From Nemertoderma westbladi (taxonomy: Eukaryota > Animalia > Xenacoelomorpha), in the NCBI GenBank assembly GCA_032718475.1, contig JAUCBJ010007886.1, positions 9,757-73,756 of the forward strand: DNA of 64,000 nt, given 5' to 3'. A program made the position numbers and the translations under genes. Positions 1,742 to 44,425 of this stretch are shown one piece after another. Position 1 is the stretch's first letter. Each line of letters begins with the position of its first letter. Under the pieces are notes generated by a model. The model made no database searches and was not told the DNA's origin. It saw only the letters and a list, made by a program, of their open reading frames with translations.

Positions 1742-2399
1742 GTCGCAGGCCCTATAGCATTCTAAAAAGTAAAGTAACCCGTCATATAAAGTTATAGGTT
1801 ACATGCATCCTGTTCTATGTACGGGGTTACATAGGCCCTAATAGTTCTAATAAAATGATAATAATTTATCATAGTATAGTGAAAAAAAACTAGGCCCCAT
1901 TTATTTAAATGTAGGTGGGTACAACGTGTAATGTACAGTACGAATCGTTAATGACTGGACTGGACACATTCAATGCTTCAAAGCTGACTGTAACTGTATT
2001 TTACTTTCGGCAGTGATTTTTTATGTCCTTTTATTTGACTTTTTCTGTCCTCCTTTTTTACGAATTGTGCATAATGACTTTTGTTGTCCTTTTAATGACT
2101 TTTGTTGTCCTTTTAATGACTTTTTATGTATGTATTTCTTCAAACTGTCAGACTGCTGATTTCTGGACTGTCAGACAGTTGATTTCAACATGCCTATGCC
2201 AAAACATTCAAAATTTGTTTATTTCTGGTCTGTCGGACAGTTGGTTTCACTACTGTATGCCTGTGCCAAAACATTCCATGATTCCATGATTTATAGACTA
2301 TGAGATAGAATTCCATATGCGCCTGTTGTAAAAGACTCTAAATTTAATAGTTTGTGGTTGTTGTCGATAATCGATTACCACATGACGTAGCAAAACACT

Positions 2400-3111
2400 C
2401 ATTTTATAGCCAAAAACAATTACCAATTGATGGAAAGGAGCAGGTTAAGGCCGGATTTTCTAACCAAAACAATAAACAGTCACTTTACCAAATCAGGGAA
2501 AGGAGCAGGTTACAGAGGCGGGATTTACTAACCAAAACAATAAACGATCATTTAACTAATTGAGGGAAAGGAGCAGGTTACAGAGACGGGATTTTCTAAC
2601 CAAAACAATAAACGATAACATTACCAATTGAGAGAAAGGAGCAGGTTACAGAGGCAGGATTTTCTAACCAAAACAATAAACAGTCACTTTACCAAATCAG
2701 GGAAAGGAGCAGCTTACAGAGACGGGATTTTCTAACCAAAACAATACACGATAACATTACCAATTGAGAGAAAGGAGCAGGTTACAGAGGCGGGATTTCC
2801 TAACCAAAACAATAAACGATCACTTAACTAATTGAGGGAAAGGAGCAGGTTACAGAGGCGGGATTTTCTAACCAAAACAATAAACAGTCACTTTACCAAA
2901 TCAGGGAAAGGAGCAGGTTACAGAGACGGGATTTTCAAACCAAAACAATAAACGATAACATTACCAATTGAGATAAAGGAGCAGGTTACAGAGGCGTTGA
3001 TTTCCTAACCAAAACAATAAACGATCACTTAACTAATTGAAGGAAAGGAGCAGGTTACAGAGGCGGGGGAAAGGAGCAGGTTACAGAGGCGGGATTTTCT
3101 AACCAAAACAA
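2400..3111 (+). repeat. 68-bp tandem satellite, about 10 units, three monomer variants
   Basis: Unit TAACCAAAACAATAAAC-(variable)-GAAAGGAGCAGGTTACAGAGGCGGGATTTTC recurs every 68 bp (2461, 2529, ...). Confidence 0.95.
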
Positions 3112-4192
3112 CCGGTCGGCCGTTAGGCCTACCAGTACCGTATTTAAATGGTAGGCTACACAGTAGGCCTACAGCAGTACCGGTACTAAAATACAGAAAT
3201 ACCTGCTTTATACCTACATCTGTACATACAATACAGCAAAATAGTGCTATGTATACTAATACCGGTACTGATAGCCTGAGAGAACAGCAGTAGAGAAAAC
3301 GGTAGCATGGAACCTAACATTAGATTTTTGGAGGACATAAAAAATAAAAAAAGGACAAAAAAAGGATTTAAACGGATAATAAAAATTATTGCGTTTACTT
3401 TCTAACTATTTTTGTCATCCTACTGTATATTAGGCCATAACTGTACATATGCATACGGAACTGTTTCTGCAAGGGACGCTTTAACTAACTTATTCATAAA
3501 CGGGGGCCTCTTTAAACGGGATCATGGTTATACATATTAATGGAACACGTACAGCACCGGTAAGAACGATTTCATTGTTAATTAAAGGTTAACTTTAGGC
3601 CAAACCGGTAGTTTGGTGAGAGACAAGCGGTGACGGATGAATGTCTTCCGCCTACCCTGTGTGTAATTATTGGAAATCAAAGAAATGCTTACATCATCTG
3701 CATCAAAGTTGTCAATTCGTTACGTGAAAGGGAAATAAACGTTCCTTAGAAAATAATGGATCATGATGAATGATGATCAATTTATGCAAACAGCAATCTG
3801 ATAAAATGTTCAGTAAAACAGAATTGATAAAAGCAACAATAATGGTTAACAATTAGTCTCAACACACCACTTGCCAAAGCGTCAGACGTCAGAGTCTCTG
3901 TCTTAAAAGTACACTGAACAGTCCTAAAATGAAATACTAATTATATAATATATCATAATTATTTTATTTTGTAACCAAAACAATAAACGATTTTGTTACA
4001 AATTGACGGGAAGAGATAATAATAAAATGATATACATTTGGGGGGGGGGGGGGGGGGTGGATCTATCTAAAGATGACCTTTCGGGTGGCCTCTGGCTTCG
4101 GACCAGCCGACTGTTTGTTTGCATGATATGCAACATCAAAAGGGCCCTGTATTCGCAAAATCTATATCTATCTATATCTAAAATCTCAAGAA

Positions 4193-6641: not shown

Positions 6642-7715
6642 TTATTGTTTGTGCGCTGTAAAAGGAGTCAAACCAAGTAGTGATATCGAAGGTACTATTA
6701 CGCACAGGGGTAACCTCACCCATCTGGGCACCAACCACGCACCAGGCATACCCACCCTCTCTAACACCCCGCGGACACTCTGTATGTCCCATGGGACCCG
6801 GCCATTAACGTCAGTAAACCCATACTCCCTGGCCAACTCGCACGTCATATAATGGCGCCCCGTCTTACTCATGATACATGGATCGTCTGCCAAGTAAACC
6901 ACGCATCTGCCAGCTAACTCGGGGGTTTCCATCATAAAATCAAAATCAAAAGTCTCCATATTAATCACTTTATTTCGAGAATTTTTAGGCACATCTTTAC
7001 CGATACCGCAAACTTTAGCTAAAATTTTGAAGAAATTTGGGTTACTTTTACCTTCATTATCGCCTTTTACGTCTTTCAATGTATCATAAACTATTTCAGT
7101 TTCTACAGGGGAAGGCCATAGAGACACAACGGATACGCCTTTGGAACGCAATTCGAGAGCGGTGTCTACTGTGAGTCGTTCAACCCCGGCCTTACCAATA
7201 CCGTAAGCAGGGGTAAAGAAATATGTATAGGACCCAATGGAGCAAACGTTGACAATGAGACCGTGGCCTTGGGCCACCATCAGACGGGATGCGTGGACGC
7301 TGGATACGTATTGGGCTGTTAATCCCACGTCGTTTATGTCGGCGAATAAGGAAGCGGGGAGTTCCCAAAACGGCGTTCCCGTATTCGCGAATACGTATCG
7401 AATCGCCGAGTAGCAGTTGTTAACAACTACGTCGAGTTTACCTCTGGATTCATCGCCGATTCTGCCGTATAAATCTTCTATCTGCGATGGGTCGCTGTGG
7501 TCGCATTGCACTGGTACCACCCGGCCCCCGCCCCCGCGTTGTCTCATCTCCATAGCAACCTCTTCCAGTGACTGACCCGGTTTATCCTCGCGAGGCGTCA
7601 AAGTCCTCGCCGTTATATAAACATCGGCGCCAGCTTCAGCTAATTGCAAGGCGATTCCCCTACCAATACCACGGGATGCACCAGTTACTAAAGCAATCTC
7701 GCCTCGTAATGCCAT
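6642..7715 (-). CDS. DHRS1: Short-chain dehydrogenase/reductase, DHRS1-like, intronless
   Basis: TGASRGIGRGIA cofactor motif, VQCDHS, LDVVVNN, YGIGK (YxxxK), ETPELAGRCVVYLA, LAREYGFTDVNG; resembles animal DHRS1. Confidence 0.85.
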   Translation of the reverse strand: MALRGEIALVTGASRGIGRGIALQLAEAGADVYITARTLTPREDKPGQSLEEVAMEMRQRGGGGRVVPVQCDHSDPSQIEDLYGRIGDESRGKLDVVVNNCYSAIRYVFANTGTPFWELPASLFADINDVGLTAQYVSSVHASRLMVAQGHGLIVNVCSIGSYTYFFTPAYGIGKAGVERLTVDTALELRSKGVSVVSLWPSPVETEIVYDTLKDVKGDNEGKSNPNFFKILAKVCGIGKDVPKNSRNKVINMETFDFDFMMETPELAGRCVVYLADDPCIMSKTGRHYMTCELAREYGFTDVNGRVPWDIQSVRGVLERVGMPGAWLVPRWVRLPLCVIVPSISLLGLTPFTAHKQ

Positions 7716-10908: not shown

Positions 10909-12276
10909 GCTTGAACGCATCATATACAGTAGTACAGTAAATAACGGAATGGGTCAAGGATTTATCTGTCAGACATTTCATCCTTTAACCAACACCTATT
11001 TGCCAAAATTGACACATCCCCTAACAGTGTCAATTCGCTAAGGCTACGCCAATTTCGTGGCTCGATCCACCTGGAGTGTTCTGTGCACTAAATCAGGGTT
11101 TAATACCCCCCTTCTGTAATATTGTACCCGTTTAATTATTTACCCCATGACTAGACTAAACAAAACCGTAAACCATGTTACTGTAGATTAATAATTTTGC
11201 CATTATAATTTATTATTGATTACAATATAGAAACAGAATATTGAAATTGTTACCTCTAAGTGATATTAACTATATATTCGATTTAAATAAAGTACTGTAG
11301 CGCTGTATTTCACGCCGATTCGAATTGTAATATTTCCACGAACGAGAGAAAGCCGCCCCAATATTAGATTATTACAACAACATATCCATTGGGTAAGAAA
11401 GTGGAAGAGAGCCAGCCCGTCTCTTAATTTTTTACTTTATATTACGCGATAAATTTTCACTCATCTCGTCATGAACCCAAAAACATGTATGTAACCTTTT
11501 GTTAAATTTGTTGGCTATGCGTTTGCGGTTGTTTGGGCGGGGTGTGGTAGGCCTACACTTTTCACACTTAAATATTTTGGTTGTGAAATGTTACAGGGCA
11601 TAGCGATCTGAGATATTTCATTTATATTTTATTATGAGAGGAAGAAGAACATACAACGTTATTTACTATATATGTAACAAAATAATTGTTTTCGGGTTTA
11701 ACTTGGAAGCCTCCCCAAATAGTTGATATACAATTATATTTAAAATTATTTCCATGGTCATGGTCATTCACCCGTCTTTAGTTAGAAATTTGTTTGCATG
11801 AAAGACAGATTATTTTAGTTTTTACTGATTTATTATCTCTTATCTGACTGGGGTAATAATAAAGGATAGGATAAATGGAAGCAAACTGTGACAGTAACAA
11901 ATATTTCCCCGTCACCCTAGCATGTCTTAAGTATATGATATATCAAAGGGGGAAGTTTGGATTCACTGCATAAATGCAGTTCACCAAACTTCCCCCGAAT
12001 GCACACTGTAACTTCCCCCTTCCACCAAATATCCACTGTTTAATTAATTTGAAGCGATATAATAAGTACAAAATTGTGCGATTTTTTAATTGTGTGGTCC
12101 AATTGTTATTTGATTTCTATTTATTATTTAAAGTGCATTTAATATCACACTGGTTTTTAGAATATTATACTATACAACCTTATGTTTTATTATTTTACCC
12201 AATCGAAGCCTCATAAGGGCCGGTTATTTGTACGCATATCCCCAAATGCGCTCAGTAAGGTTCAAACAACATATTA

Positions 12277-12462
12277 CAGTCCCAATCCCAATAAACATTA
12301 ACTTGGTCATTTTGGCGGCCAAAACGACCAAAATGGCCAAATATAAATTGCGGCATTCATGAAAGGAACTTCTGAGGCAAGTTGGCTTGTCAATCACAGC
12401 CAGTGGATAGAGGCTGAGTGTAACTAAAGCCCAGGATGTTGGCAGATAGAAAAAGGCTTCGA
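12277..12462 (+). mobile_element. Truncated copy of the Tc1/mariner-type element that interrupts the Polinton penton gene
   Basis: TA|CAGTCCCAATCCCAATAAACATTAACTTGGTC... matches 17662-17890; the other end is absent. Confidence 0.85.
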
Positions 12463-22578: not shown

Positions 22579-23031
22579 ATGTTATCTACAGAGGACCATG
22601 ATATGTTTCCAGTGGGTGGTCACTATTTGGGAGCGTTTCCAGCTAACAAATTACCTAAATTAGATAATAATAAGCGGAAAGATTATGGGTTGATAGTAAA
22701 TACCGATAAAGAGCATCTTCCTGGGATTCATTGGATCGCAATATATATACGAGATAATGAGGCCGAAGTATTTGACTCGTTTGGACCAAAATATCCAAAC
22801 AGATGCATCGAAAAATGGCTTGAGAAAAATTCCGCAAGGTGGCGTACTACTCGCAATCAATTTCAAGACCCTAGGCGGACCACATGCGGTCTGTACTGTC
22901 TTTATTATTTGGTAAATCGTATTCACACAATCTATCCAATGAGAGTGTTTACAAATAATGTGGAAATAAATGAAATAATATTATATAAATGGCTTGTTAA
23001 TTATTATAAAATAAACCAACAAGCGTTGTAA
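22579..23031 (+). CDS. Adenain-like cysteine protease (capsid maturation)
   Basis: IVNTD..PGIHWIA (His), FDSFG (Asp), QFQ..TTCGLYCLYYL (Gln/Cys). Confidence 0.93.
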   Translation: MLSTEDHDMFPVGGHYLGAFPANKLPKLDNNKRKDYGLIVNTDKEHLPGIHWIAIYIRDNEAEVFDSFGPKYPNRCIEKWLEKNSARWRTTRNQFQDPRRTTCGLYCLYYLVNRIHTIYPMRVFTNNVEINEIILYKWLVNYYKINQQAL

Positions 23032-23062
23032 TTAATCATTTAACTTTTGTTTATCAGATAAA

Positions 23063-23563
23063 ATGGATAATATTATTTTTGTTGATTTTCAATATTATAA
23101 GATAGACAATAAAGAGTATCCGGTAGTATTTAAAGAATTGCTATATTCGATTCTAATTACACCAAAACTAATGTAAAGACGTTTTTAATTAAAGGCCCAC
23201 CTAATATTAAGTTATCAGCATTAGATGCAGCCCACGTAAACAATTTACGGGATATGACTTCTCACTTGCCCTGGGACTACGGGGACATTTCGCAAGATGA
23301 CTTTAAAAAATATATGAAGAGACATTTAAAATATAAAAAAAATATTCATGTATTTGGGTTGATGAAGCAGGCAATATTAGTTTCCCAACTCGATGTTCTC
23401 GCGTCAAATTCGGTGGAGAAATTGGGAATATATAAGCAATATCACGATTATTTAACCCCTTGTCGGGCATAAATGTGCATTCCACTTAAACATAAGGGAT
23501 AACTGTCTGCGATACTGCTCAGCAAAACGCGTTGGGGGGTATGAGATGCTACACTTTTTCATG
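23063..23563 (+). pseudogene. Frameshifted Polinton accessory ORF (possibly DEDD-exonuclease-like, C-terminal Cys/His cluster)
   Basis: MDNIIFVDFQ..FKE/(L)AIF..FLIKGPP..HLPWDYG..IHVFG../HKCAFH..YCSAKRV, joined across frameshifts near 23140 and 23467. Confidence 0.55.
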
Positions 23564-24002
23564 AGAAAGCGTTTAACTGCGACTGATGATGATAAACAGA
23601 AAGAAATAACTGATGTGGAAGATGTACTGTAGGTTTACTCTAAGCATGTAATGTGATGGGATATAATATAATTTTATTTTGGTGATGATCTTGATGTTAA
23701 TATAAAAATATAATAAAATATAATTTTTTTTACAACAAGTTCTCTAAAAAGAGTCAATTGCGCTAGGTTAACCATACACATTTAACAATATGACATAGAC
23801 GTAACATGTACAGTAAGTATTCTCGATATCATTCTAATATAGATGTACTGGTATTGCGAAACATCCTATACATCGTAAACTAATAACACATACAGTAGTT
23901 GACTAGTAATATTAGTCAGAAATGCAACATAAACTGTATAGGATGTAGTGTTATCCTGTTGGTACCGGTACTGATAAATTGAATAATTTATTATAGGCCT
24001 AA

Positions 24003-24795
24003 TCACAACTGTCATCCGCTTTATCAGTACCGGTAGTGTTTTACTCTTCCAACACTGTAGTCACAGTCTACTGGTATCAGTACAGCAGTAATCTGAAGCA
24101 ATAGCATACTGCTGTCATGATCCGGATTACACGCAGGGGTCTCACATATAGGGATTAGATCACCTACCCAAACAATACAGTACTGCAGTACTGTCGTTGT
24201 TGTTGTAACAGCATAGTTAGATACAGCATACTGATTTCCTTTGATTAGCATTGTACTGCAGTACCGGTACTACAGTATTAATGTAACAGTACCCGTAGTA
24301 ACAAACTAGGCCAATGTATACAATATCGTGAGCCAGTTACAATCAGATGTGTACGCTGTCAGCCACACTGCGGGGGATGCGGTCAACCTTGCAGCACCTA
24401 TCCACAACTGTCATCCACTTTATCAGTACAGCTGTAATCTGATGCAATAGCATTTGTTTTTTTTCACCTATAAGGATACTGCTGTCTACCCGAACCTTGA
24501 TTAGCATACTGCTGTCATAACCTAGAAGGCACGCGTGGCTCTCACATATAGGGATTAGATCACCTACCCAAACAATACAGTACTGCAGTACTGTCGTTGT
24601 TGTTGTTGTAACAGTATAGTCAGATACAGCATGTTGATTTCCTTTAATTAGCATTGTACCGCAGTACCGCTACTACAGTATTAATGTAACAGTACCCGCA
24701 GTAACAAACTAAACCATTGTATACAATATCGTGAGCCAGTTACAATCGGATGTGCGCGCAGTCAGCCACGCTGCTGGGAAGCGGTCCACCTCGCA
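24003..24795. repeat. Tandem duplication of about 400 bp in the Polinton convergent intergenic region
   Basis: 24003-24395 and 24403-24795 share CACAACTGTCATCC...GAGCCAGTTACAATC...GCAGC with internal indels. Confidence 0.85.
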
Positions 24796-24821
24796 GCCGC
24801 CCAGCCACCCTCGCAGCTAGT

Positions 24822-24965
24822 CACGCAGTCAGCCTCGCGGCACGCAGTCAGCCTCGCGGCACGCAGTCAGCATCGCGGCACGCAGTCAGCCTCGCGGCAT
24901 GCAGTCAGCCTCGTGGTCGGTCATGCAGTCAGCCAGCCAGCCACGCGGCTTGGCATGCAGTCAGC
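24822..24965 (+). repeat. GC-rich 19-bp minisatellite (GCAGTCAGCCTCGCGGCAC), about 5 copies plus degenerate
   Basis: Direct inspection. Confidence 0.9.
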
Positions 24966-25055
24966 CCGTGAGAGTCATACTTATTCAAACGAGGTTAGTT
25001 TTCCCTAACTACTGATAGATTGATTGAAAAAATAATAATGTTTAATTTTCACCTT

Positions 25056-25601
25056 CTAATCACCAACACCTAAAGTCACAACACCAAACATTAATAAATA
25101 ATTAACAAGTTTACTAAATATAGGGTAATAAATGTGAAATTTGCTAGGTGAACACATTAAAGTACATTTACCAGTATGAAAGCAGCAAATGACTACGGTA
25201 TTATTTATTCTTATTTTGCAATTATTAAAAATTTCAGGTTCATATATAACTTGAAGTTGCACATTATCAAAGACAACATAAAACCCGGTATTGTTTATCA
25301 ATAACCTATAGACAACAGACTTAATACTAAAAATATAAGTACATAAATTAACAGATTTTAAAATCAAATTAATACTAGTTTTATCAAATATATGCTTTTT
25401 TACTTTTTGGAAATTATACTTACTGCCTAATAATGTAATACGACCATTTTTAAATATTAATAATGTGGCACCAAATATCTTATATATAAACTGATTTGGT
25501 TTGAGTATGTGTTTACCAGATAATTGATTTTTTAATTCTTTAAAATTAATCGCTGACACTTGCTGGCAACTTACATTCTTATTAACTATCTGATAGTTCA
25601 T
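25056..25601 (-). CDS. Divergent TATA-box-binding-protein (TBP)-like protein, 181 aa
   Basis: Two-repeat TBP pattern: YQIVN..SC, PNQF, ATLLIFKNGRITLLGSK (cf. TALIFSSGKMVCTGAK), YEPEIF (cf. YEPELF), ICCFHTGKCTL (cf. LLIFVSGKVVL); start overlaps pPolB end by 20 nt. Confidence 0.8.
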   Translation of the reverse strand: MNYQIVNKNVSCQQVSAINFKELKNQLSGKHILKPNQFIYKIFGATLLIFKNGRITLLGSKYNFQKVKKHIFDKTSINLILKSVNLCTYIFSIKSVVYRLLINNTGFYVVFDNVQLQVIYEPEIFNNCKIRINNTVVICCFHTGKCTLMCSPSKFHIYYPIFSKLVNYLLMFGVVTLGVGD

Positions 25602-28600
25602 TGTTTGGTTCCCGATAAATAGGTATATTGTTTTTTTTTACGGGTTTTTCAACCTTTGTTTGATAGTGACCCCAGGGAAGCGAATGATTTTTATTAACCC
25701 AATAAAGTTTATCGTCAAATGCGCTGAGAGCAAACTTATCTCGTGCTACAGTATACACTTTGTGTAATTGACTCTGAAATTGGTGCGTTTCCTTGGAAAT
25801 TTCTAAGTTATCCCTATATGCTCTTAAATAATCTTCGTGGCAAATATTTTTATCCACGACAGCTCTTGTTATTCCTTTCGCCCGTCGTATATTTGTTTCA
25901 TTGAATTCTAAAATTGAATATAACTTTGGTCTTAAAAATACTGCTTGTTTAATTTCACGTGAGGCTAGTTCATCTTTACAGTAATAGAGCCTGGATTTAT
26001 TTTTATCGCTGTAGAGAGGGTGATCCTTGGGGTAATTGGATGTATCTAAAATATTATTTTTAATTAAGGCTTTTAAGAAATTACTCTGCGATGTATTATA
26101 GTAACAACCTATTAAAGAGTCCGTATCTGATGCTACAATTTCAATTCGGCAGTTTAATTCTTTCTCAATAGGTAGCAATTTATCGTAATACAGCTGATAC
26201 ATATCCAATTTAGCCAAGTCCAAGACAGTACTACCTACATAGACCGGCTTATCGAGAGTTACAGAGTCTTTTACTAATAAATGTCCCGATAAGGAATCGT
26301 TATAAATCATGAAATTTTCGTGATTTATACGTTTGACCAATAGGTTGCATTTCTCTTTACTATTAGCGATACGAAAGTTGCAACGGTCCCTTATCTTCTC
26401 TATCGTTTTTCCAAATAACGAATTCTTTAGAAGCTTCGCAACAGCTGTATCAATGTAACTTTTTGCTACTCGCCTTTGATTAATATTAAAATCTATATAG
26501 GGTTTAAATACAAAGTCTTGATGGAAAGAATACAATTTATGGAGCTTAGTAACAATTAAACCTTGTTTTATATAAAATTTTAACAGTTTTAAATTTACAT
26601 GATAGAATTCCTTATCGAATTGTGTCAACATAAGTTTTGGTGCACACATCTTATAATTGCTATTAGTACCTCTTTGTTTACAAACATGATTATATTGTTC
26701 CCTCATATATGGTGAAAGCATTGTCTCATTTATACTTAAATGTTCTGGAGCTAAGGGTAGTTCTAATGTACGATCATGAATATCTTTGGGATATTTCAAA
26801 TCGCAAATTAAGAAAAACCCAATATCACCTTCAGTATCAAGATTTGTCAAATAGTTTATTAGTTCTTCTGGAGCAGCATTCTCTAAATATGTAACGTTGA
26901 CTTGTTCAAACCCTGAAACAGGTAGCTTTTTACTTAAATTACCAGAATACAAGGAATTAAAATCTATATTGAAAATATGACACTCTTCCTTGCTTGGATC
27001 ATAATTATCAGTATCTGGTATATTTGATTCTATGTAATGCTTTCGACAGAATGAAACCCCTCCTCTAATAGATGCTTCAAAATCTCTATATGTTTGGTAA
27101 TCTTTTATTAATGCTAACTTACATTTATTGTATTTCAGGGCGCAATCATAAGTGAAAGCTGCGATACTGCAATAATAAACTACTTCTAATTCGTAGTTTT
27201 GTCTACATACTCTCCTAAAGTTCTCAAATATAACAGCGAGGAGACAAACATCGAGTTTTAAGTATGCTAAAAGATAATCCTTGAGATTTGTACACTCAAA
27301 CTGACTCCATGATGCGTTGGCAAAACTATATTCCTCGGGAGTACAGGTATTTTGTGTTAATTTACTATAAAATTTGTCTATTGATGGTAATTTCGAATCA
27401 TTGAATTTATTTAAATCTGTCAGATACTTGTAGGGAAATATACCTTTTCGTTTAATTGTTGCATTATTTAAATTTGGATAAAAATATTTCATTTGCTGTT
27501 CAGTAATTGGTAGAACTGATGTTATATCCTCGCTGTCTATATCCTTTGTTGAACAATCAACTAAAGTACTTAGGGAAAAGGATAAAAATTGATATGTGTC
27601 TAAGACACGTAGCTCGATTTTTGTTTTTTGTTCTTTCACCGGTATATGCATACTCAGTGAAATATACCTTTCAGAATTTTTAGGGATTACCTTTATATCC
27701 CAATCGGAATATTTGTTATTGCTAAACCCAACTTGCAAAAGAAAATGCAAATCGTAGAGATTGCAGTTGTGTGCAGCGAGTATATACATGTGTCGTTTCA
27801 ATGATAAAGAGCGGTTACACGCGTTACAAGCGGCTGCTATATAGTTACCAGTAATATGTGAGTGATGTTTATTTTTCTCAGACTTATCCTTAAATAAAAC
27901 ATTGCAATAAAAGCAAGTTTTAGCTTTCCAAAAACTTAACTTATCTACATCGTTAAGTATAATCTTCTCTCGCGTATGGGTTTCTGCCCACTTATATAAT
28001 TGGGTGATGTCATTATATACAGAGTCTAAAAAGTCTTGAATACAGTTGTTGTCGATTGTTTTTGTAAAGGTCTTCAAATAAAATTTTGGTGGATTGATTA
28101 ATTCACTACTAGGAACAATTAAATAACTTACAGCGCATGGAATATGATTCTGAATAAATTTACTGTTGGTGGCTGGCTCCAAAATAGATTCTATGTCAAA
28201 ATATATTACAAACAATGCTGGTAATGTTCTGTCTAAATTTCTAAAGCTAATGTGAGTTCTTTTTTCAGACGGTAGCTTCTCAACTTGACTTTTTCCTCGA
28301 TAACAAGCAAGACAGTGACGTTCTAGAACATCCTTGCTGTAGAAATGAGACAAACACCGTTCACAAAATTTCCTACATCTAATATGCTTACCTGTTGTAT
28401 TCAACAAACGATTCAAGTTAGTTATGCAAATATAATGTGATTGTTTACTCGTATTCTTATTTTTTACAAGTAATATATTCAATAACTCTTTATCTGGAGT
28501 GATTTTACTAAATGGAGCCTGTCTTAATATAGATACTCGATTGTTATCGTAGAGTAATAAATTAATTATATATGCTGAATTCTGTTTTTCAAAAAGTTTA

Positions 28601-29589
28601 ATTGCAAGCAGCCATTCTGTTGGATAATCTTTGTTCCCGTTGTCAAAAATAAAATGACTCATATAATTTTTGTACGATGAAGTACGGTTTTTGTTGTTTT
28701 TCACTTTGCTACTAAATTTTGTGGCTATAATTGCCCATTTGAAACAGTCATTATCAGCCGTTTGTATATTTATAACACATTTTTTAACTGATAGAGTCTT
28801 AGGTAACTCCATATAACCTTTATATTCCAGTGACCTACACTTGGATTCAGCTACTTTAATTTCCACTCTTAATAAAGATTTAACGCGCCACCCTGAGCCA
28901 CGAGTGTTAAACATGGCTATTTTTTGCATTAATTGTTCTAGTACATACTCAAACCATGTGTCAAAACTTTCATGTGAATCTATGGTATTAACTGCACCAC
29001 CTGAAGAACTAAAATAGAAAGCTTCTTCTTGATCTCCCTCTGAAAAATGTGATCGATACATGAGTATATTCACACCTAGCCAGGGTCTAAGTACATTCAT
29101 TTCGCTAAGTTTTCCTAATAATAACGTTTTGATGTGTGGCAGAATTTTTAGTATCAATGAATGAATATCAGGAAAATCTTCATCATTCGGAAGATTGTAA
29201 ACATAGATTTCTAAACGGTTATCGTGTGCAGCTCGTTCGATGCTAAAAATTGATGGACCTTGACCAGATTTCAGTCTTTTTCTAGATGCGACAGTATTGT
29301 TTTGGTTCGCTCGTGGTCTAACATGATAATAACGTTGGTGACAGTCGTGACGTAAATAATTATCATATAAATACTCTTTATTACAAGTAGGACAAGTTTT
29401 TTCATACACGTAAAACTTCATTTCTTTACATCCCGTAGTTGATTCATGTCGTTTGCATATTTCTTCTGTAGGTGTAAAAACATGACACTTAAAACAAGAA
29501 TAACCTTCAAAATGTGACCTTAGGTGGCGTAAATAATTTCGTTTAGAAATTTGAAGAGGACAAAATGGACATTTCAATTGTTTATCCAT
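25582..29589 (-). CDS. Protein-primed family B DNA polymerase with N-terminal Zn fingers, terminal-protein/vOTU region and inserted HNH-like domain
   Basis: GSGW, DNDCFKWA...SHY, Exo YFDIES / HN..YD / YLKLDV, CFYC..HHSHITG..AACNACN, Pol DFNSLY, KLLKNSLFGK, SDTDS, RAKGI. Confidence 0.97.
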   Translation of the reverse strand: MDKQLKCPFCPLQISKRNYLRHLRSHFEGYSCFKCHVFTPTEEICKRHESTTGCKEMKFYVYEKTCPTCNKEYLYDNYLRHDCHQRYYHVRPRANQNNTVASRKRLKSGQGPSIFSIERAAHDNRLEIYVYNLPNDEDFPDIHSLILKILPHIKTLLLGKLSEMNVLRPWLGVNILMYRSHFSEGDQEEAFYFSSSGGAVNTIDSHESFDTWFEYVLEQLMQKIAMFNTRGSGWRVKSLLRVEIKVAESKCRSLEYKGYMELPKTLSVKKCVINIQTADNDCFKWAIIATKFSSKVKNNKNRTSSYKNYMSHFIFDNGNKDYPTEWLLAIKLFEKQNSAYIINLLLYDNNRVSILRQAPFSKITPDKELLNILLVKNKNTSKQSHYICITNLNRLLNTTGKHIRCRKFCERCLSHFYSKDVLERHCLACYRGKSQVEKLPSEKRTHISFRNLDRTLPALFVIYFDIESILEPATNSKFIQNHIPCAVSYLIVPSSELINPPKFYLKTFTKTIDNNCIQDFLDSVYNDITQLYKWAETHTREKIILNDVDKLSFWKAKTCFYCNVLFKDKSEKNKHHSHITGNYIAAACNACNRSLSLKRHMYILAAHNCNLYDLHFLLQVGFSNNKYSDWDIKVIPKNSERYISLSMHIPVKEQKTKIELRVLDTYQFLSFSLSTLVDCSTKDIDSEDITSVLPITEQQMKYFYPNLNNATIKRKGIFPYKYLTDLNKFNDSKLPSIDKFYSKLTQNTCTPEEYSFANASWSQFECTNLKDYLLAYLKLDVCLLAVIFENFRRVCRQNYELEVVYYCSIAAFTYDCALKYNKCKLALIKDYQTYRDFEASIRGGVSFCRKHYIESNIPDTDNYDPSKEECHIFNIDFNSLYSGNLSKKLPVSGFEQVNVTYLENAAPEELINYLTNLDTEGDIGFFLICDLKYPKDIHDRTLELPLAPEHLSINETMLSPYMREQYNHVCKQRGTNSNYKMCAPKLMLTQFDKEFYHVNLKLLKFYIKQGLIVTKLHKLYSFHQDFVFKPYIDFNINQRRVAKSYIDTAVAKLLKNSLFGKTIEKIRDRCNFRIANSKEKCNLLVKRINHENFMIYNDSLSGHLLVKDSVTLDKPVYVGSTVLDLAKLDMYQLYYDKLLPIEKELNCRIEIVASDTDSLIGCYYNTSQSNFLKALIKNNILDTSNYPKDHPLYSDKNKSRLYYCKDELASREIKQAVFLRPKLYSILEFNETNIRRAKGITRAVVDKNICHEDYLRAYRDNLEISKETHQFQSQLHKVYTVARDKFALSAFDDKLYWVNKNHSLPWGHYQTKVEKPVKKNNIPIYREPNNELSDS

Positions 29590-29722
29590 CTCTTTATTAT
29601 CCTAAAAACAATTTAAAATTAATATGAATATTGTTATATATATATATAATCAAAAAAAATTCATAAGCTACTCAACATAAATAAAATATAATATCTAAAC
29701 TTTAATTAATTTAATATTTTCA

Positions 29723-29791
29723 GAATGAGCTCGATTGAATCAGTTGAGCTCTTTATATATATATTTCAAGTTTCTACTTATACCAACCAAT
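29723..29791 (-). promoter_or_regulatory. Candidate TATA + Inr core promoter for pPolB/TBP-like unit
   Basis: Minus-strand TATAAAG starting 29757 and TCATTC with +1 A at 29726 (31 nt); CCAAT near 29787; TTTTTAG splice acceptor 12 nt before the ATG. Confidence 0.55.
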
Positions 29792-30137
29792 CATAAATAA
29801 CAGTTACATTGGAAACTAATATCATAAATAAAGTTGCTTTTACAACTGAATTCTTTATAATAAAATCAAGTCTAAACCAAGATGTGCATAATACGTTTTT
29901 AATTTTCATTGATAAAGTAGGTTTTACATGCTAATGTTTTATTATGGTGGTGTAAACTCACGCATTTATATGCGAATGTTTTATACCTAATCCCGTGCTC
30001 ACATTAAACTATCACCAATATTTACTCAATAAAGTCACCTTTACACGCAAATACTTTATAATAATCACGCTTTGTGATAAAAAGTTACCTTTACAAGTCA
30101 GTGTGAAACTGAAAAAAAGTCTCTAGTTAATAATAAA

Positions 30138-31181
30138 TCAATCTGATACTGTTTTTATATGTTCCTTATTGTAATCTGCTACCTCTTCACTTGCTTTTGT
30201 AACTTTTATTTTCTTTGTAGGTATAGAATCATTGTTGGGAATGGAAGATGTTTGAGATGTAGATCTGCGCTTTCTATCACTCGATGTCTCTTCGATGTAT
30301 GTCTTTGGATTAAATGTAGATGAAACTACTTCTGGAAATGACTTATTAACCTTAAACTTCCAAGTTGGTTGATATAGAATCGCGAAACCGTCTGCTATAT
30401 CAGTTGATGAACCCTTTAACATCATATCATAGAGAAACTCTATATGAGGTATGTCTTTATCGTAATGTAACTGTAAATATTTGCTTTCCTTGTCTGTAAT
30501 AATTACTTTTTTTTCTTGTACATTTATTTTTACCTTAAGTCGGTCAGATAAAGCTTTATCGCTCGTATCTAGCTCTGAAAAGACACCTTCGTTACTAATT
30601 TCATAATTCCATTCATACCACAATGAATTTACTTCCGATGCTGTTAAGTTAAACCCATTATAATACCTAAGACCAATAGCATCAGAATATCTAGCTGAAA
30701 TCTCCCATAGTCCCATATAAGTCGTTCCTTTATATTTGCTTACAAAACCAACAAAAGATGGGTTGGTTAAATTAACAACAGAACACTGATTTATTATTTC
30801 GAGTGGTGGTGATAACAATTCTAATATTTCTGACTTACTCTGAAGCAATAAATTAATGAGTGATTTGTTTAGAATTTGACATTTGCCTTGCTTCTGAATA
30901 TATACGTTTTCAGTAATAACACAGGTGGAAATATTTAACTTTCCTCTTGTAAATTCTATATTAGGATAAATATTACCTCTTGAAACTGGTGATTCCTTTT
31001 GTCGGTTGATTAATATTTCTAAGACGTCTAGAAGGTAGAGTGTATCCTGGTAAGAGAAGCACGTTGTTACATTGCTATCGCTTGAGAGTAATATAAAATA
31101 CTTGCCATAAACAATACTACAGGTATATTTATTACATGTAAATTTCCAAGTATTGCTTGAAGTTTTTTTAAATAAATCCAT
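30138..31181 (-). CDS. Polinton protein with possible PC4/Sub1-like ssDNA-binding domain and basic tail
   Basis: FVSKYKGTTYMGLWE...GFNLTASEVNSL resembles the PC4 core (VSxFxGxxxIDIRE..GISLxxEQW); RKRR and PTKKIK are NLS-like. Confidence 0.5.
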   Translation of the reverse strand: MDLFKKTSSNTWKFTCNKYTCSIVYGKYFILLSSDSNVTTCFSYQDTLYLLDVLEILINRQKESPVSRGNIYPNIEFTRGKLNISTCVITENVYIQKQGKCQILNKSLINLLLQSKSEILELLSPPLEIINQCSVVNLTNPSFVGFVSKYKGTTYMGLWEISARYSDAIGLRYYNGFNLTASEVNSLWYEWNYEISNEGVFSELDTSDKALSDRLKVKINVQEKKVIITDKESKYLQLHYDKDIPHIEFLYDMMLKGSSTDIADGFAILYQPTWKFKVNKSFPEVVSSTFNPKTYIEETSSDRKRRSTSQTSSIPNNDSIPTKKIKVTKASEEVADYNKEHIKTVSD

Positions 31182-31220
31182 AATTAGAATGAAAACTATT
31201 TTGAAAAATAAAAACTAAAT

Positions 31221-31254
31221 AAATGATTATTAGAATGTAAAACTTCTGTTTATA
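31221..31254 (-). promoter_or_regulatory. Candidate TATA + Inr core promoter for ORF 30138-31181
   Basis: Minus-strand TATAAAC starting 31254 and TCATTT with +1 A at 31224 (30 nt). Confidence 0.5.
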
Positions 31255-31796
31255 TGGTTGCTTTAATACAACAGAGTGACTTACAGTGAGGAATATAGTA
31301 GCTTCGTGTAACAGATGCAACGTGTACAGCTAAATTTATTACATTAGCATGAGTTAGAGAGTGAAATAGCAGTAACATGTAACAGATGCAACGTGATCAA
31401 TGCTAGCTCTGTCATTCTAACTTATATTTTAACTTAGTTGACCGACCAGTTACATCGATAAAAGAAATCGATTATTATTAATAGTCGAATTAATGTATTC
31501 TATGCTATAGTAATTATGTTAAGGAACTAGAAGCTATTTATAAACATCTGCTACCAGTGATGAAGATGAAGAATTCAATGACTATGGTATAACTCAGATA
31601 TTTATCGCCTTTTGCTCTCGAGGTTGGATGGAAGAGTGATTGGTGAGTTGTGAGGAGTTATAACGGTCCCGGGTTCGAACCCTGTTGAATATTTTGTTAT
31701 CTGAAAAATTGCAAAATTAAATTTAGTTACTGGTGAAAAATAGCGATTTGAAAAATAGTAGAAGTTACCTGTAGACATCTCTAGCGTCTGTAAAAT

Positions 31797-32119
31797 AATG
31801 GTTGGTGAAAAATAGCGATTTGAAAAATAGTAGAAGTTACCTGATGCTAAGTGTAGACACCCGAACACCTGTAAAATAAAGGTTGGTGATTGGACGGAGT
31901 ACTAGCGTTGGGTGACTAATAACGCCTCTAGCGGAAGATGCGGGAACTTGAGAAGTTGCCATGGTTACGGATGAAATGCTGACATCTGATTGGTTGAAAT
32001 AATAACGACCACTGCTAAAGGTTGAAATGGTGGCTTCTGATTGGATGGATTACTAAAAATGGACGGTAATGATGGGCTACGGGTGACTTTGATCGAGTTG
32101 GCTAGTAATGTATACTACT
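31797..32119 (-). repeat. Polinton right terminal inverted repeat
   Basis: Ends ...GCTAGTAATGTATACTACT; 41 bp of its inner edge is duplicated at 31731-31771. Confidence 0.95.
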
Positions 32120-40511: not shown

Positions 40512-41275
40512 CTAACTAACGGTACTACGTACCCTCTAACTCTAATTCTAACTAACTAACGGTACTACGTACCCTCTAACTCTCCTCTAACTAACGGTAC
40601 TACGTACCCTCTAACTCTTCTCTAACTAACTAACGGTACTTACGTACCCTCTAACTCTCTAACTAACTAGCGGTACTACGTACCCTCTAACTCTAACTAA
40701 CTAGCGGTACTTACGTACCCTCTAACTCTCTAACTAACTAGCGGTACTTACGTACCCTCTAACTCTCTAACTAACTAGCGGTACTACGTACCCTCTAACT
40801 CTAACTAACTAGCGGTACTTGCGTACCCTCTAACTCTCTAACTAACAAGCGGTACTTACGTACCCTCTAACTCTCTAACTAATTAGCGGTACTTACGTAC
40901 CCTCTAACTCTCTAACTAACTAGCGGTACTTACGTACCCTCTAACTCTCTAACTAACTAGCGGTACTTGCGTACCCTCTAACTCTCTAACTAACTAGCGG
41001 TACTTACGTACCCTCTAACTCTCTAACTAACTAGCGGTACTTGCGTACCCTCTAACTCTCTAACTAACTAGCGGTACTACGTACCCTCTAACTCTCTAAC
41101 TAACTAGCGGTACTTACGTACCCTCTAACTCTCTAACTAACTAGCGGTACTTACGTACCCTCTAACTCTCTAACTAACTAGCGGTACTTGCGTACCCTCT
41201 AACTCTCTAACTAACTATCGGTACTACGTACCTCCTAACTAACTAACTAACTAGGTATTACGTACCTCTTAACTA
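40512..41275. repeat. About 37-bp tandem array (about 20 copies) between pol and the accessory ORF
   Basis: Unit TAGCGGTACTTACGTACCCTCTAACTCTCTAACTAAC with an internal GGTAC..GTACC hairpin. Confidence 0.95.
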
Positions 41276-41419
41276 ACTTCTGCCTACTAACTGCGTACCT
41301 ACTATGTACTTATTAATTTTATTTTTATTTTCTATTTTTTTGTGTGGGAAGGGCGTCTCGCCCTCAATCCCACCCCCCTCAGTCCAAATCTTGGACGACT
41401 AAACTCTTCTCTAACTCCA

Positions 41420-44420: not shown

Positions 44421-44425
44421 ACTAC

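Follow-up and report, generated by a model that had tools for sequence, protein, structure and literature searches.

A Polinton of 19,456 bp encodes its own divergent TBP, and the gene is very probably a functional part of the element. This Polinton occupies positions 12664-32119 of the window (the whole stretch of DNA that was analysed, 64,000 nucleotides). The TBP-like gene (25056..25601, minus strand) is intact and intronless, and runs from ATG to stop over 181 amino acids arranged in two lobes. A divergent TBP had been attributed to the Polinton in the preliminary description, and the profile and fold matches given below agree on a real and conserved protein. The residues that it has kept and lost suggest a stand-alone viral promoter factor that would recruit host TFIIB and Pol II to the promoters of the element, a role to which we give an even chance.

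The element is bounded by inverted repeats of 323 nt (left, 12664..12986, plus strand; right, 31797..32119, minus strand), which are 100% identical once the right one is complemented. Next to the right repeat, on its inner side (31731-31771), lies a second copy of a 41-nt segment from the inner terminal repeat. Polintons/Mavericks are characterized by a 6-bp target-site duplication. No exact 6-bp duplication was found at the flanks of the window copy, where 4 of 6 positions match; the missing duplication may reflect a later change or recombination. The Polinton label holds on the inverted repeats, pPolB, the rve integrase, the C5 protease and the A32-like ATPase. On the plus strand, the left repeat is followed by an orphan ORF of 147 aa without Pfam family (13541..13984), a RING-finger-like ORF of 150 aa whose matches lie under the Pfam cut-offs (14148..14600), an A32-like packaging ATPase (14817..15494; Pox_A32 E 0.001, under the cut-off, and likeness to related loci), a basic pX-like core protein (15536..15919; weak Adeno_PX match, E 0.013, and likeness to related loci) and an intact rve integrase (16144..17232; Pfam E 1e-10). 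A small basic ORF of 56 aa lies between the pX-like gene and the integrase (15922-16092, plus strand). The virion genes come next. Probable minor capsid gene 1 (17504..19911, plus strand) was named from its position and its likeness to ORFs of related loci, with no family match, and is split by a 1.5-kb MITE-like element (17662..19194, no strand assigned), which is flanked by a TA duplication and has inverted ends of 71 nt. The same MITE-like family was also seen just outside the Polinton, at 12275-12431. Probable minor capsid gene 2 (19904..20749) and a basic 187-aa probable core protein (20751..21314), both on the plus strand, bear inferred labels. The 419-aa ORF at 21317..22576 (plus strand), presumably the major capsid protein from its position and size, matched the corresponding ORF of a related locus (L134) at E 9e-46 and no protein family. 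The capsid labels all derive from gene position and from likeness to related loci. The block ends with an adenain-like C5 cysteine protease (22579..23031, plus strand; Pfam E 8.5e-6, above the cut-off) and a frameshifted ORF (23063..23472, plus strand) that is broken near 23134-23173 and looks nuclease-like by eye only. By eye, the start of this ORF resembles nuclease-like ORFs at L125:11226 and L134:8389 in two related loci, with weak tblastn support; the one at L134:8389 overlaps the end of the L134 TBP gene. The window copy is therefore defective in two genes, by insertion in minor capsid gene 1 and by frameshift in the ORF at 23063.

A non-coding spacer (23480..25050, no strand assigned) separates the plus-strand block from the converging minus-strand block; within it are an imperfect duplication of 400 bp and tandem repeats of 19 bp. 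The minus-strand block contains the TBP gene, pPolB (25582..29589, 1335 aa) and, upstream of pPolB on the same strand, an orphan ORF of 347 aa (orf347; 30138..31181). An ATTAAA on the minus strand at 25046, just past the TBP stop, is a possible poly(A) signal. A PC4/SSB-like reading of orf347, made by eye only, was dropped for want of tool support, Pfam, PDB and Atlas all being blank. An orphan ORF beside pPolB in L134 (L134:7095-8161) is also PC4/SSB-like by eye and blank in Pfam. Were orf347 PC4-like, a mimic of a host transcription factor would stand on either side of pPolB. In the flanks of the element, an intronless short-chain dehydrogenase ORF of 357 aa (6642-7715, minus strand) is possibly a host retrocopy, and BEL/Pao LTR retroelement ORFs extend over 37480-63632, where a direct repeat of 300 nt was seen at 44423 and 59162; such flanks would fit an animal genome. 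Tandem arrays of 68-nt units (2380-3127) and 37-nt units (40638-41299) were also observed.

The identity of the TBP was established with profiles. Pfam PF00352 matched the ORF in two stretches at 36.1 bits (cut-off 22.9, E 5.7e-9). A profile of 114 eukaryotic TBP cores gave 18.5 bits over two lobes, and 2000 shuffled sequences peaked at 12.1. The claim of an intact ORF of 181 aa, the size of the TBP core, with both pseudo-repeats was thereby borne out. In the ESM Atlas, all 30 hits of the window protein were TBPs (score 0.95), at a recognition value of 2000, which is under the tool's own 'strong' level, and the three closest clusters were 50-67% viral. When the PDB was searched with a profile built only from the three Polinton TBPs described below, 35 TBP sequences were retrieved at E 5.6e-13 to 8.8e-8, the next match standing at 0.92. 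Searches with the single window sequence returned 0 of 41 candidates in a set of 5.8 billion and 0 relatives among 1.84 billion representatives, phmmer against the PDB retrieved no TBP, and pattern matches in viral contigs gave 0 of 31 and 0 of 44. The window TBP is too divergent for single-sequence searching, so absence from those sets says little. The protein is very basic (K+R 21, D+E 6).

Comparison of folds was carried out on two models. The first was aided by an alignment of 47 rows, 44 of them canonical TBPs, which biases it towards the TBP fold and means that it is not independent; it reached pLDDT 77.5 and pTM 0.63, with strands and helices in the order of TBP. The saddle fold of two alpha/beta lobes is present in this model, with TBP rows in its alignment. 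Foldseek of the model gave 44 PDB matches at E<=0.001, the rows shown in that range being all TBPs, and 23 BFVD matches at E<=0.001, of which the named ones were mostly giant-virus TBPs or uncharacterised proteins. The closest Atlas clusters and BFVD fold matches are accordingly of the Nucleocytoviricota/dsDNA-virus kind. Alignment with human TBP by VIA gave Z 12.3 and rmsd 5.0 over 165 aligned residues and covered residues 1-177 of 181. Residues 91-110 were modelled as low-confidence strands where TBP has helix 1'; this strand-rich segment and the rmsd of 5 A suggest a distorted C-lobe. The second model, made by AlphaFold from the single sequence, was poor (pLDDT 41.9), and its fold searches held no significant TBP match: the top rows were TBP and RNase HIII at E about 0.2-0.3, with a middling Z of 5.1 for RNase H3. 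The TBP fold was thus obtained in the model built with canonical TBP rows.

Sister copies were sought in sequencing runs. Four runs from one organism, belonging to three studies and one of them possibly the source of the window, hold 29-61% of the sampled words, and a run from a second organism holds 13%. Their contigs show near-identical TBP copies together with a subfamily of about 83% likeness, in which 50 of 293 letters differ. In all, 66 differences were counted, and the 40 with the best support were classed one at a time: 30 fall at third, 8 at first and 2 at second codon positions, and 24 are synonymous, 16 non-synonymous and 0 stops. For the 39 differences in 25179-25412, with alleles pooled and multiple hits uncorrected, pN/pS is about 0.17 (P 1e-7). 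No indel in the TBP ORF is listed at the 5% level in the four runs; in two contigs of low depth, the TBP region has gaps, of 10 and 3 letters. The TBP ORF is under purifying selection in the sister copies, where an absent or degenerate ORF had been looked for. No RNA run is listed as containing words of the TBP region, and one run with a small word share (X5), only guessed to be RNA, was left out as evidence of expression.

The ORF upstream of the TBP gene had no Pfam hit and was named pPolB from its homologues (120 among the matches listed, best E 4e-142), many of which carry PF03175 and/or PF02945. As had been described, the TBP ATG overlaps the 3' end of pPolB: it lies 20 nt inside the pPolB end, in a different frame. 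A pPolB-TBP fusion was considered and is ruled out by the different frames and by two tandem stops that end the pPolB frame. Divergent contigs span the pPolB end and the TBP gene (the joint 25549 to 25655 in runs X4 and X5, and record 11 in X3), which shows that the gene order holds within the host. The coupling to pPolB proposed in the preliminary description is partly supported: it holds for the sister subfamilies of the host, in which pPolB is followed by TBP, but not for two related Polintons, L134 and L125. In L134, two ORFs and about 1 kb separate the TBP gene from pPolB, which lies upstream of it on one and the same strand, and in L125 the TBP gene is 5.5 kb from pPolB, in front of the ATPase gene. 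These positions indicate that the TBP follows the pPolB lineage and not adjacency. It is a trait of that lineage, and the overlap with pPolB is not conserved. Between 11783 and 14128, the TBP-bearing Polinton L125 also has a pair of paralogous ORFs of 150 aa, alongside one KilA-N and one PLA2-like gene.

These two Polintons came from a survey in which an alignment of 46 pPolBs was used to collect the best 80 of at least 555 metagenome loci and 28 viral loci; in the resulting set of 108 pPolB loci, a few records occur twice. Canonical TBP profiles matched 2 of the 108 loci, L125 (E 1.8e-14) and L134 (E 3.9e-9), both TBPs exceeding the Pfam cut-off and the next value being 0.24. In a FastTree of the 108 polymerases and the window pPolB, the three TBP carriers fell in a single 17-row clade (support 100). 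With the count restricted to loci no shorter than 10 kb, a TBP was present in 2 of 2 inside the clade and in 0 of 38 outside (Fisher P 0.0013, for kin that are not independent and loci that are partial). The remaining 14 clade members are fragments of 1.2-8.4 kb in which no TBP was seen. With the window Polinton, the survey thus gave a TBP in three Polintons of one pPolB clade, most related Polintons being without one. As the three carriers are kin, agreement among them does not amount to three independent tests. Other scans were negative: a whole-record Pfam TBP search was positive in 0 of 6 records (6 of 40 loci covered), and single-protein scans with pPolB and with the probable capsid protein found no locus.

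Gene order and lineage bear on another reading, in which the protein is no transcription factor but a DNA-bending architectural protein that binds the terminal repeats or AT-rich stretches and aids protein-primed initiation by pPolB, or packaging. The TBP gene shares a strand with pPolB, overlaps it in the window, stays near it in L134 and tracks the pPolB tree; the basic composition of the protein and the failure to find a promoter motif (see below) also agree with such a role. However, the L125 gene stands in front of the ATPase, the 38 long pPolB loci outside the clade show no TBP, and the segment kept best in all three proteins is the stirrup that contacts TFIIB. We consider an architectural role unlikely.

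Phylogeny was used to place the TBPs themselves. In a tree with 40 cellular or host-like TBPs, the three Polinton TBPs group at 98/99. When seven other viral TBPs were added, they group at 97/92, apart from these seven, and an equally long viral branch stays outside; the grouping may nevertheless come from long-branch joining. The seven controls were taken from a viral scan that gave 11 TBP loci chosen by the YEPE pattern, and no Polinton genes were detected in the 10 of these 11 loci examined. One viral protein of 566 aa (L237:869-2566) has an N-terminal part that is divergent and TBP-like. The phylogeny called for in the preliminary description therefore showed that the Polinton TBPs cohere and do not nest with animal TBPs, on branches too long to point to a host, archaeal or NCLDV donor. 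A retrocopy of a host TBP/TRF gene, captured recently or in decay and without viral role, would fit an intronless gene in an element copy that is defective in two other genes. It is largely refuted by the identity of ~20% to any cellular TBP, by the purifying selection, by orthologues in Polintons whose polymerases (L125, L134) are at most 39% identical to the window pPolB, and by the trees, and is extremely improbable.

Residues were compared in the numbering of yeast TBP, taken from chain 1rm1_A, in an alignment with 54 canonical TBPs (34 archaeal and 20 eukaryotic or host-like rows). The window motifs PNQF (35-38), LLIF (47-50), YEPEIF (120-125) and CCF (139-141) place F38, F50, F125 and F141 at yeast F99, F116, F190 and F207, in columns that are invariant in this alignment, which confirms the claim of Phe at the four positions that kink DNA. 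In L125, a residue other than Phe stands at the first kinking position. Since the 34 archaeal rows had been chosen by the pattern YEPEQFPG, invariance of that motif is circular there; the other 20 rows were chosen otherwise. All three Polinton TBPs keep N69, F116, G119, G125, Y185-E186-P187-E188, F190, F207, G210 and K211. The C-lobe stirrup YEPExF is invariant in the three proteins, at an overall identity of 19-23%, and is their best-kept segment (5, 7 and 7 of 9 residues identical). Window residues E121 and E123 correspond to yeast E186 and E188 and are common to all three. In the sister subfamily, residue 121, one of the stirrup glutamates, differs by a non-synonymous change; as this change is at a third codon position, it is conservative. 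YEPE may be retained partly for folding, since archaeal N-lobes bear a similar motif.

Other surfaces are eroded. Helix 2 is among the worst-kept segments, with 2/20, 2/20 and 1/20 residues identical to the eukaryotic majority in the three Polinton TBPs. In the window protein, the N-lobe surface has lost the R105 region, and its helix 2 (2/20 identical) contains 5 gaps. The canonical N-lobe basic cluster for TFIIA, TAF1, Mot1 and Brf, which marks a TFIID-type TBP, is lost in the Polinton TBPs, and the N-lobe hairpin is shortened. The residues that read TATA were compared as the canonical set N69/N159, V71/V161, V122/V213, T124/T215 and P191. The window protein keeps N69; positions 71, 122, 124, 159, 191, 213 and 215 are changed, and 161 depends on the alignment. 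N159 is absent from it, in a register (159-163) that is ambiguous and differs between alignments, and it alone among the three lacks P191. Non-canonical states common to the three proteins were found at 71 (N/N/H), 105 (deleted), 118 (N), 122 (T/R/Q) and 124 (L/M/L).

These surfaces have known partners. In the accessible text of Ravarani 2020 (PMC7221094), the two stirrup glutamates contact TFIIB, and one of them also Brf1/2; the N-lobe basic cluster binds TFIIA, TAF1, Mot1 and Brf; the stirrup glutamates are only about 40% conserved in viral TBPs; and viral TBPs are nearly always accompanied by a viral TFIIB. The contact of Brf1 and Brf2 with the same C-lobe glutamate (PMC7221094, same text) would allow Pol III to be recruited for small viral RNAs, but Brf1 also requires the N-lobe basic cluster, which is eroded in the Polinton TBPs, and this possibility is very unlikely. 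A decoy would be a different use of the same surfaces: the protein would occupy host TATA-like promoters or soak up TFIIB, damping host transcription (e.g. of defence genes) and driving no gene of the element. A kept stirrup with a lost N-lobe surface for TFIIA/TAF co-activation is what a dominant-negative would show, and no viral promoter word was found. The shared changes at base-reading positions 71, 122 and 124, however, are more in keeping with another target than with competition over the host TATA box, and the element, in which no polymerase is detectable, needs host Pol II. We consider a decoy unlikely.

The 61 frames of at least 55 aa in the element were searched with Pfam for TFIIB and RNA polymerase families, and none was found, although a very divergent TFIIB among the orphan ORFs could be missed. 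With the glutamates kept, the N-lobe cluster lost and neither TFIIB nor polymerase detected, a bare viral TBP using host TFIIB is the simplest reading. The TBP could instead act within a bigger viral complex for initiation, joined there by an unrecognised adaptor from the element (orf347, orf147 or the RING ORF) or by machinery that a helper giant virus supplies. Almost all viral TBPs are paired with their own TFIIB according to the accessible part of PMC7221094, KSHV ORF24 works with five other viral proteins in the part of PMC12529657 available, and three ORFs of the element are without confident family. Against such a complex stand the 0 TFIIB family hits in 61 frames, the host-type glutamates, which are absent from ORF24, and the orphan ORFs themselves, for which no counterparts were detectable in L125, L134 or the other 106 loci. 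It is quite improbable.

A host-directed promoter factor would work as follows. The TBP would be made early, together with pPolB from the same strand, and would bind and kink an AT-rich word in element promoters, other than the host TATA box. Its two stirrup glutamates would dock host TFIIB and thereby bring Pol II, and the lost N-lobe basic surface would free it from control by TFIIA, TAF1, Mot1 and NC2. After replication, it would drive the virion gene block on the opposite strand. Redirection of host RNA polymerase to late promoters, as suggested in the preliminary description, would be in line with the kept TFIIB stirrup. A shared promoter word was sought upstream of the seven virion genes, where none stands out once the hundreds of words are allowed for, and among six related loci, where none was seen by eye. 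Runs of (AAT)n were noted at 14803 and 17491, directly before the ATGs of the ATPase and minor capsid gene 1, and at 15471, about 50 nt before the pX-like gene; with 4 more elsewhere on the plus strand, they are a weak candidate for a promoter or translation signal. It counts against the promoter model that most related Polintons manage without a TBP. A stronger form, a one-protein promoter switch in which a rewired viral TBP would replace host TFIID, plug into TFIIB/Pol II and escape Mot1, NC2 and TAF1 in an old Polinton clade, is put forward tentatively as a possibility.

The Polinton TBP differs from each known system. It shares with cellular TBP (eukaryotic and archaeal) the fold, the core size, the four Phe, N69, G119, G125, YEPE-F, G210 and K211, but identity is about 17-26%, the N-lobe hairpin is 5 residues shorter, helix 2 is shortened, there is an insertion at helix 1', base-reading residues are changed and the N-terminal extension is absent. 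TBPs of Nucleocytoviricota and other dsDNA viruses have, in the accessible text of PMC7221094, the same two-lobe core with the L5.1 Phe kept and the N-lobe regulator signature lost; these TBPs nearly always have a cognate TFIIB, and their glutamates vary, whereas the TBP of the 19-kb Polinton retains both glutamates and neither a TFIIB nor an RNA polymerase was detected in the element. The nearest working analogy is KSHV ORF24, the vTBP of beta/gammaherpesviruses, which in the available part of PMC12529657 also has four Phe, with a more polar DNA face, and steers host Pol II to viral late promoters. ORF24 is there a multi-domain protein without the TFIIB glutamates that binds Pol II directly and needs five partners; the Polinton TBP is a bare 181-aa core. 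Its TBP alignment spans residues 1-177 of 181, and domains of the ORF24 type (N-terminal Pol II-binding, C-terminal DNA-binding) are absent. Animal Polintons/Mavericks/adintoviruses have the same AGTAGT-starting inverted repeats, pPolB, rve integrase, ATPase, protease and probable capsids; the window Polinton differs in carrying a TBP.

The novelty implied in the preliminary description was somewhat overstated. Starrett et al. 2021 (PMC8502044) and the preprint already give a TBP label for MELD viruses with an adintovirus-like PolB, in the legend of Fig. 5, as seen in the accessible parts of these sources. The label points to a TBP-like gene in a Polinton-type element that encodes pPolB; in the same accessible parts, it belongs to a section about datasets other than animal ones and is not analysed in the text. 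The readable part of the supplement of that paper has no TBP label in the text of the animal adintovirus maps. By term search, 'TATA' is absent from the available text of PMC11161782, PMC10748475, bioRxiv 10.64898/2026.06.19.733378 and 10.1101/2025.02.07.637071. Within the literature accessible to us, which leaves subscription papers and Repbase outside its scope, the Starrett 2021 legend is the sole mention found of a TBP in a Polinton-type element.

Viral TBPs are already well known, and the mechanism suggested for the Polinton TBP is deduced from its sequence. The way in which Polintons express virion genes is not known to be settled, nor is the self-sufficiency of animal Polintons as nuclear viruses. 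A selected TBP with a predicted contact to host TFIIB makes virion-gene expression in Polintons testable, with one small protein, a 19-kb genome and a predicted promoter word. If the proposal is true, the protein would be a natural altered-specificity TBP uncoupled from negative regulators, useful for the study of TBP evolution. The one-protein promoter switch would be a eukaryotic counterpart of the phage sigma factor. It would represent a third design beside the TBP-TFIIB pairs of NCLDV and the six-protein complex of herpesviruses, and would give endogenous Polintons an autonomous nuclear early-to-late programme.
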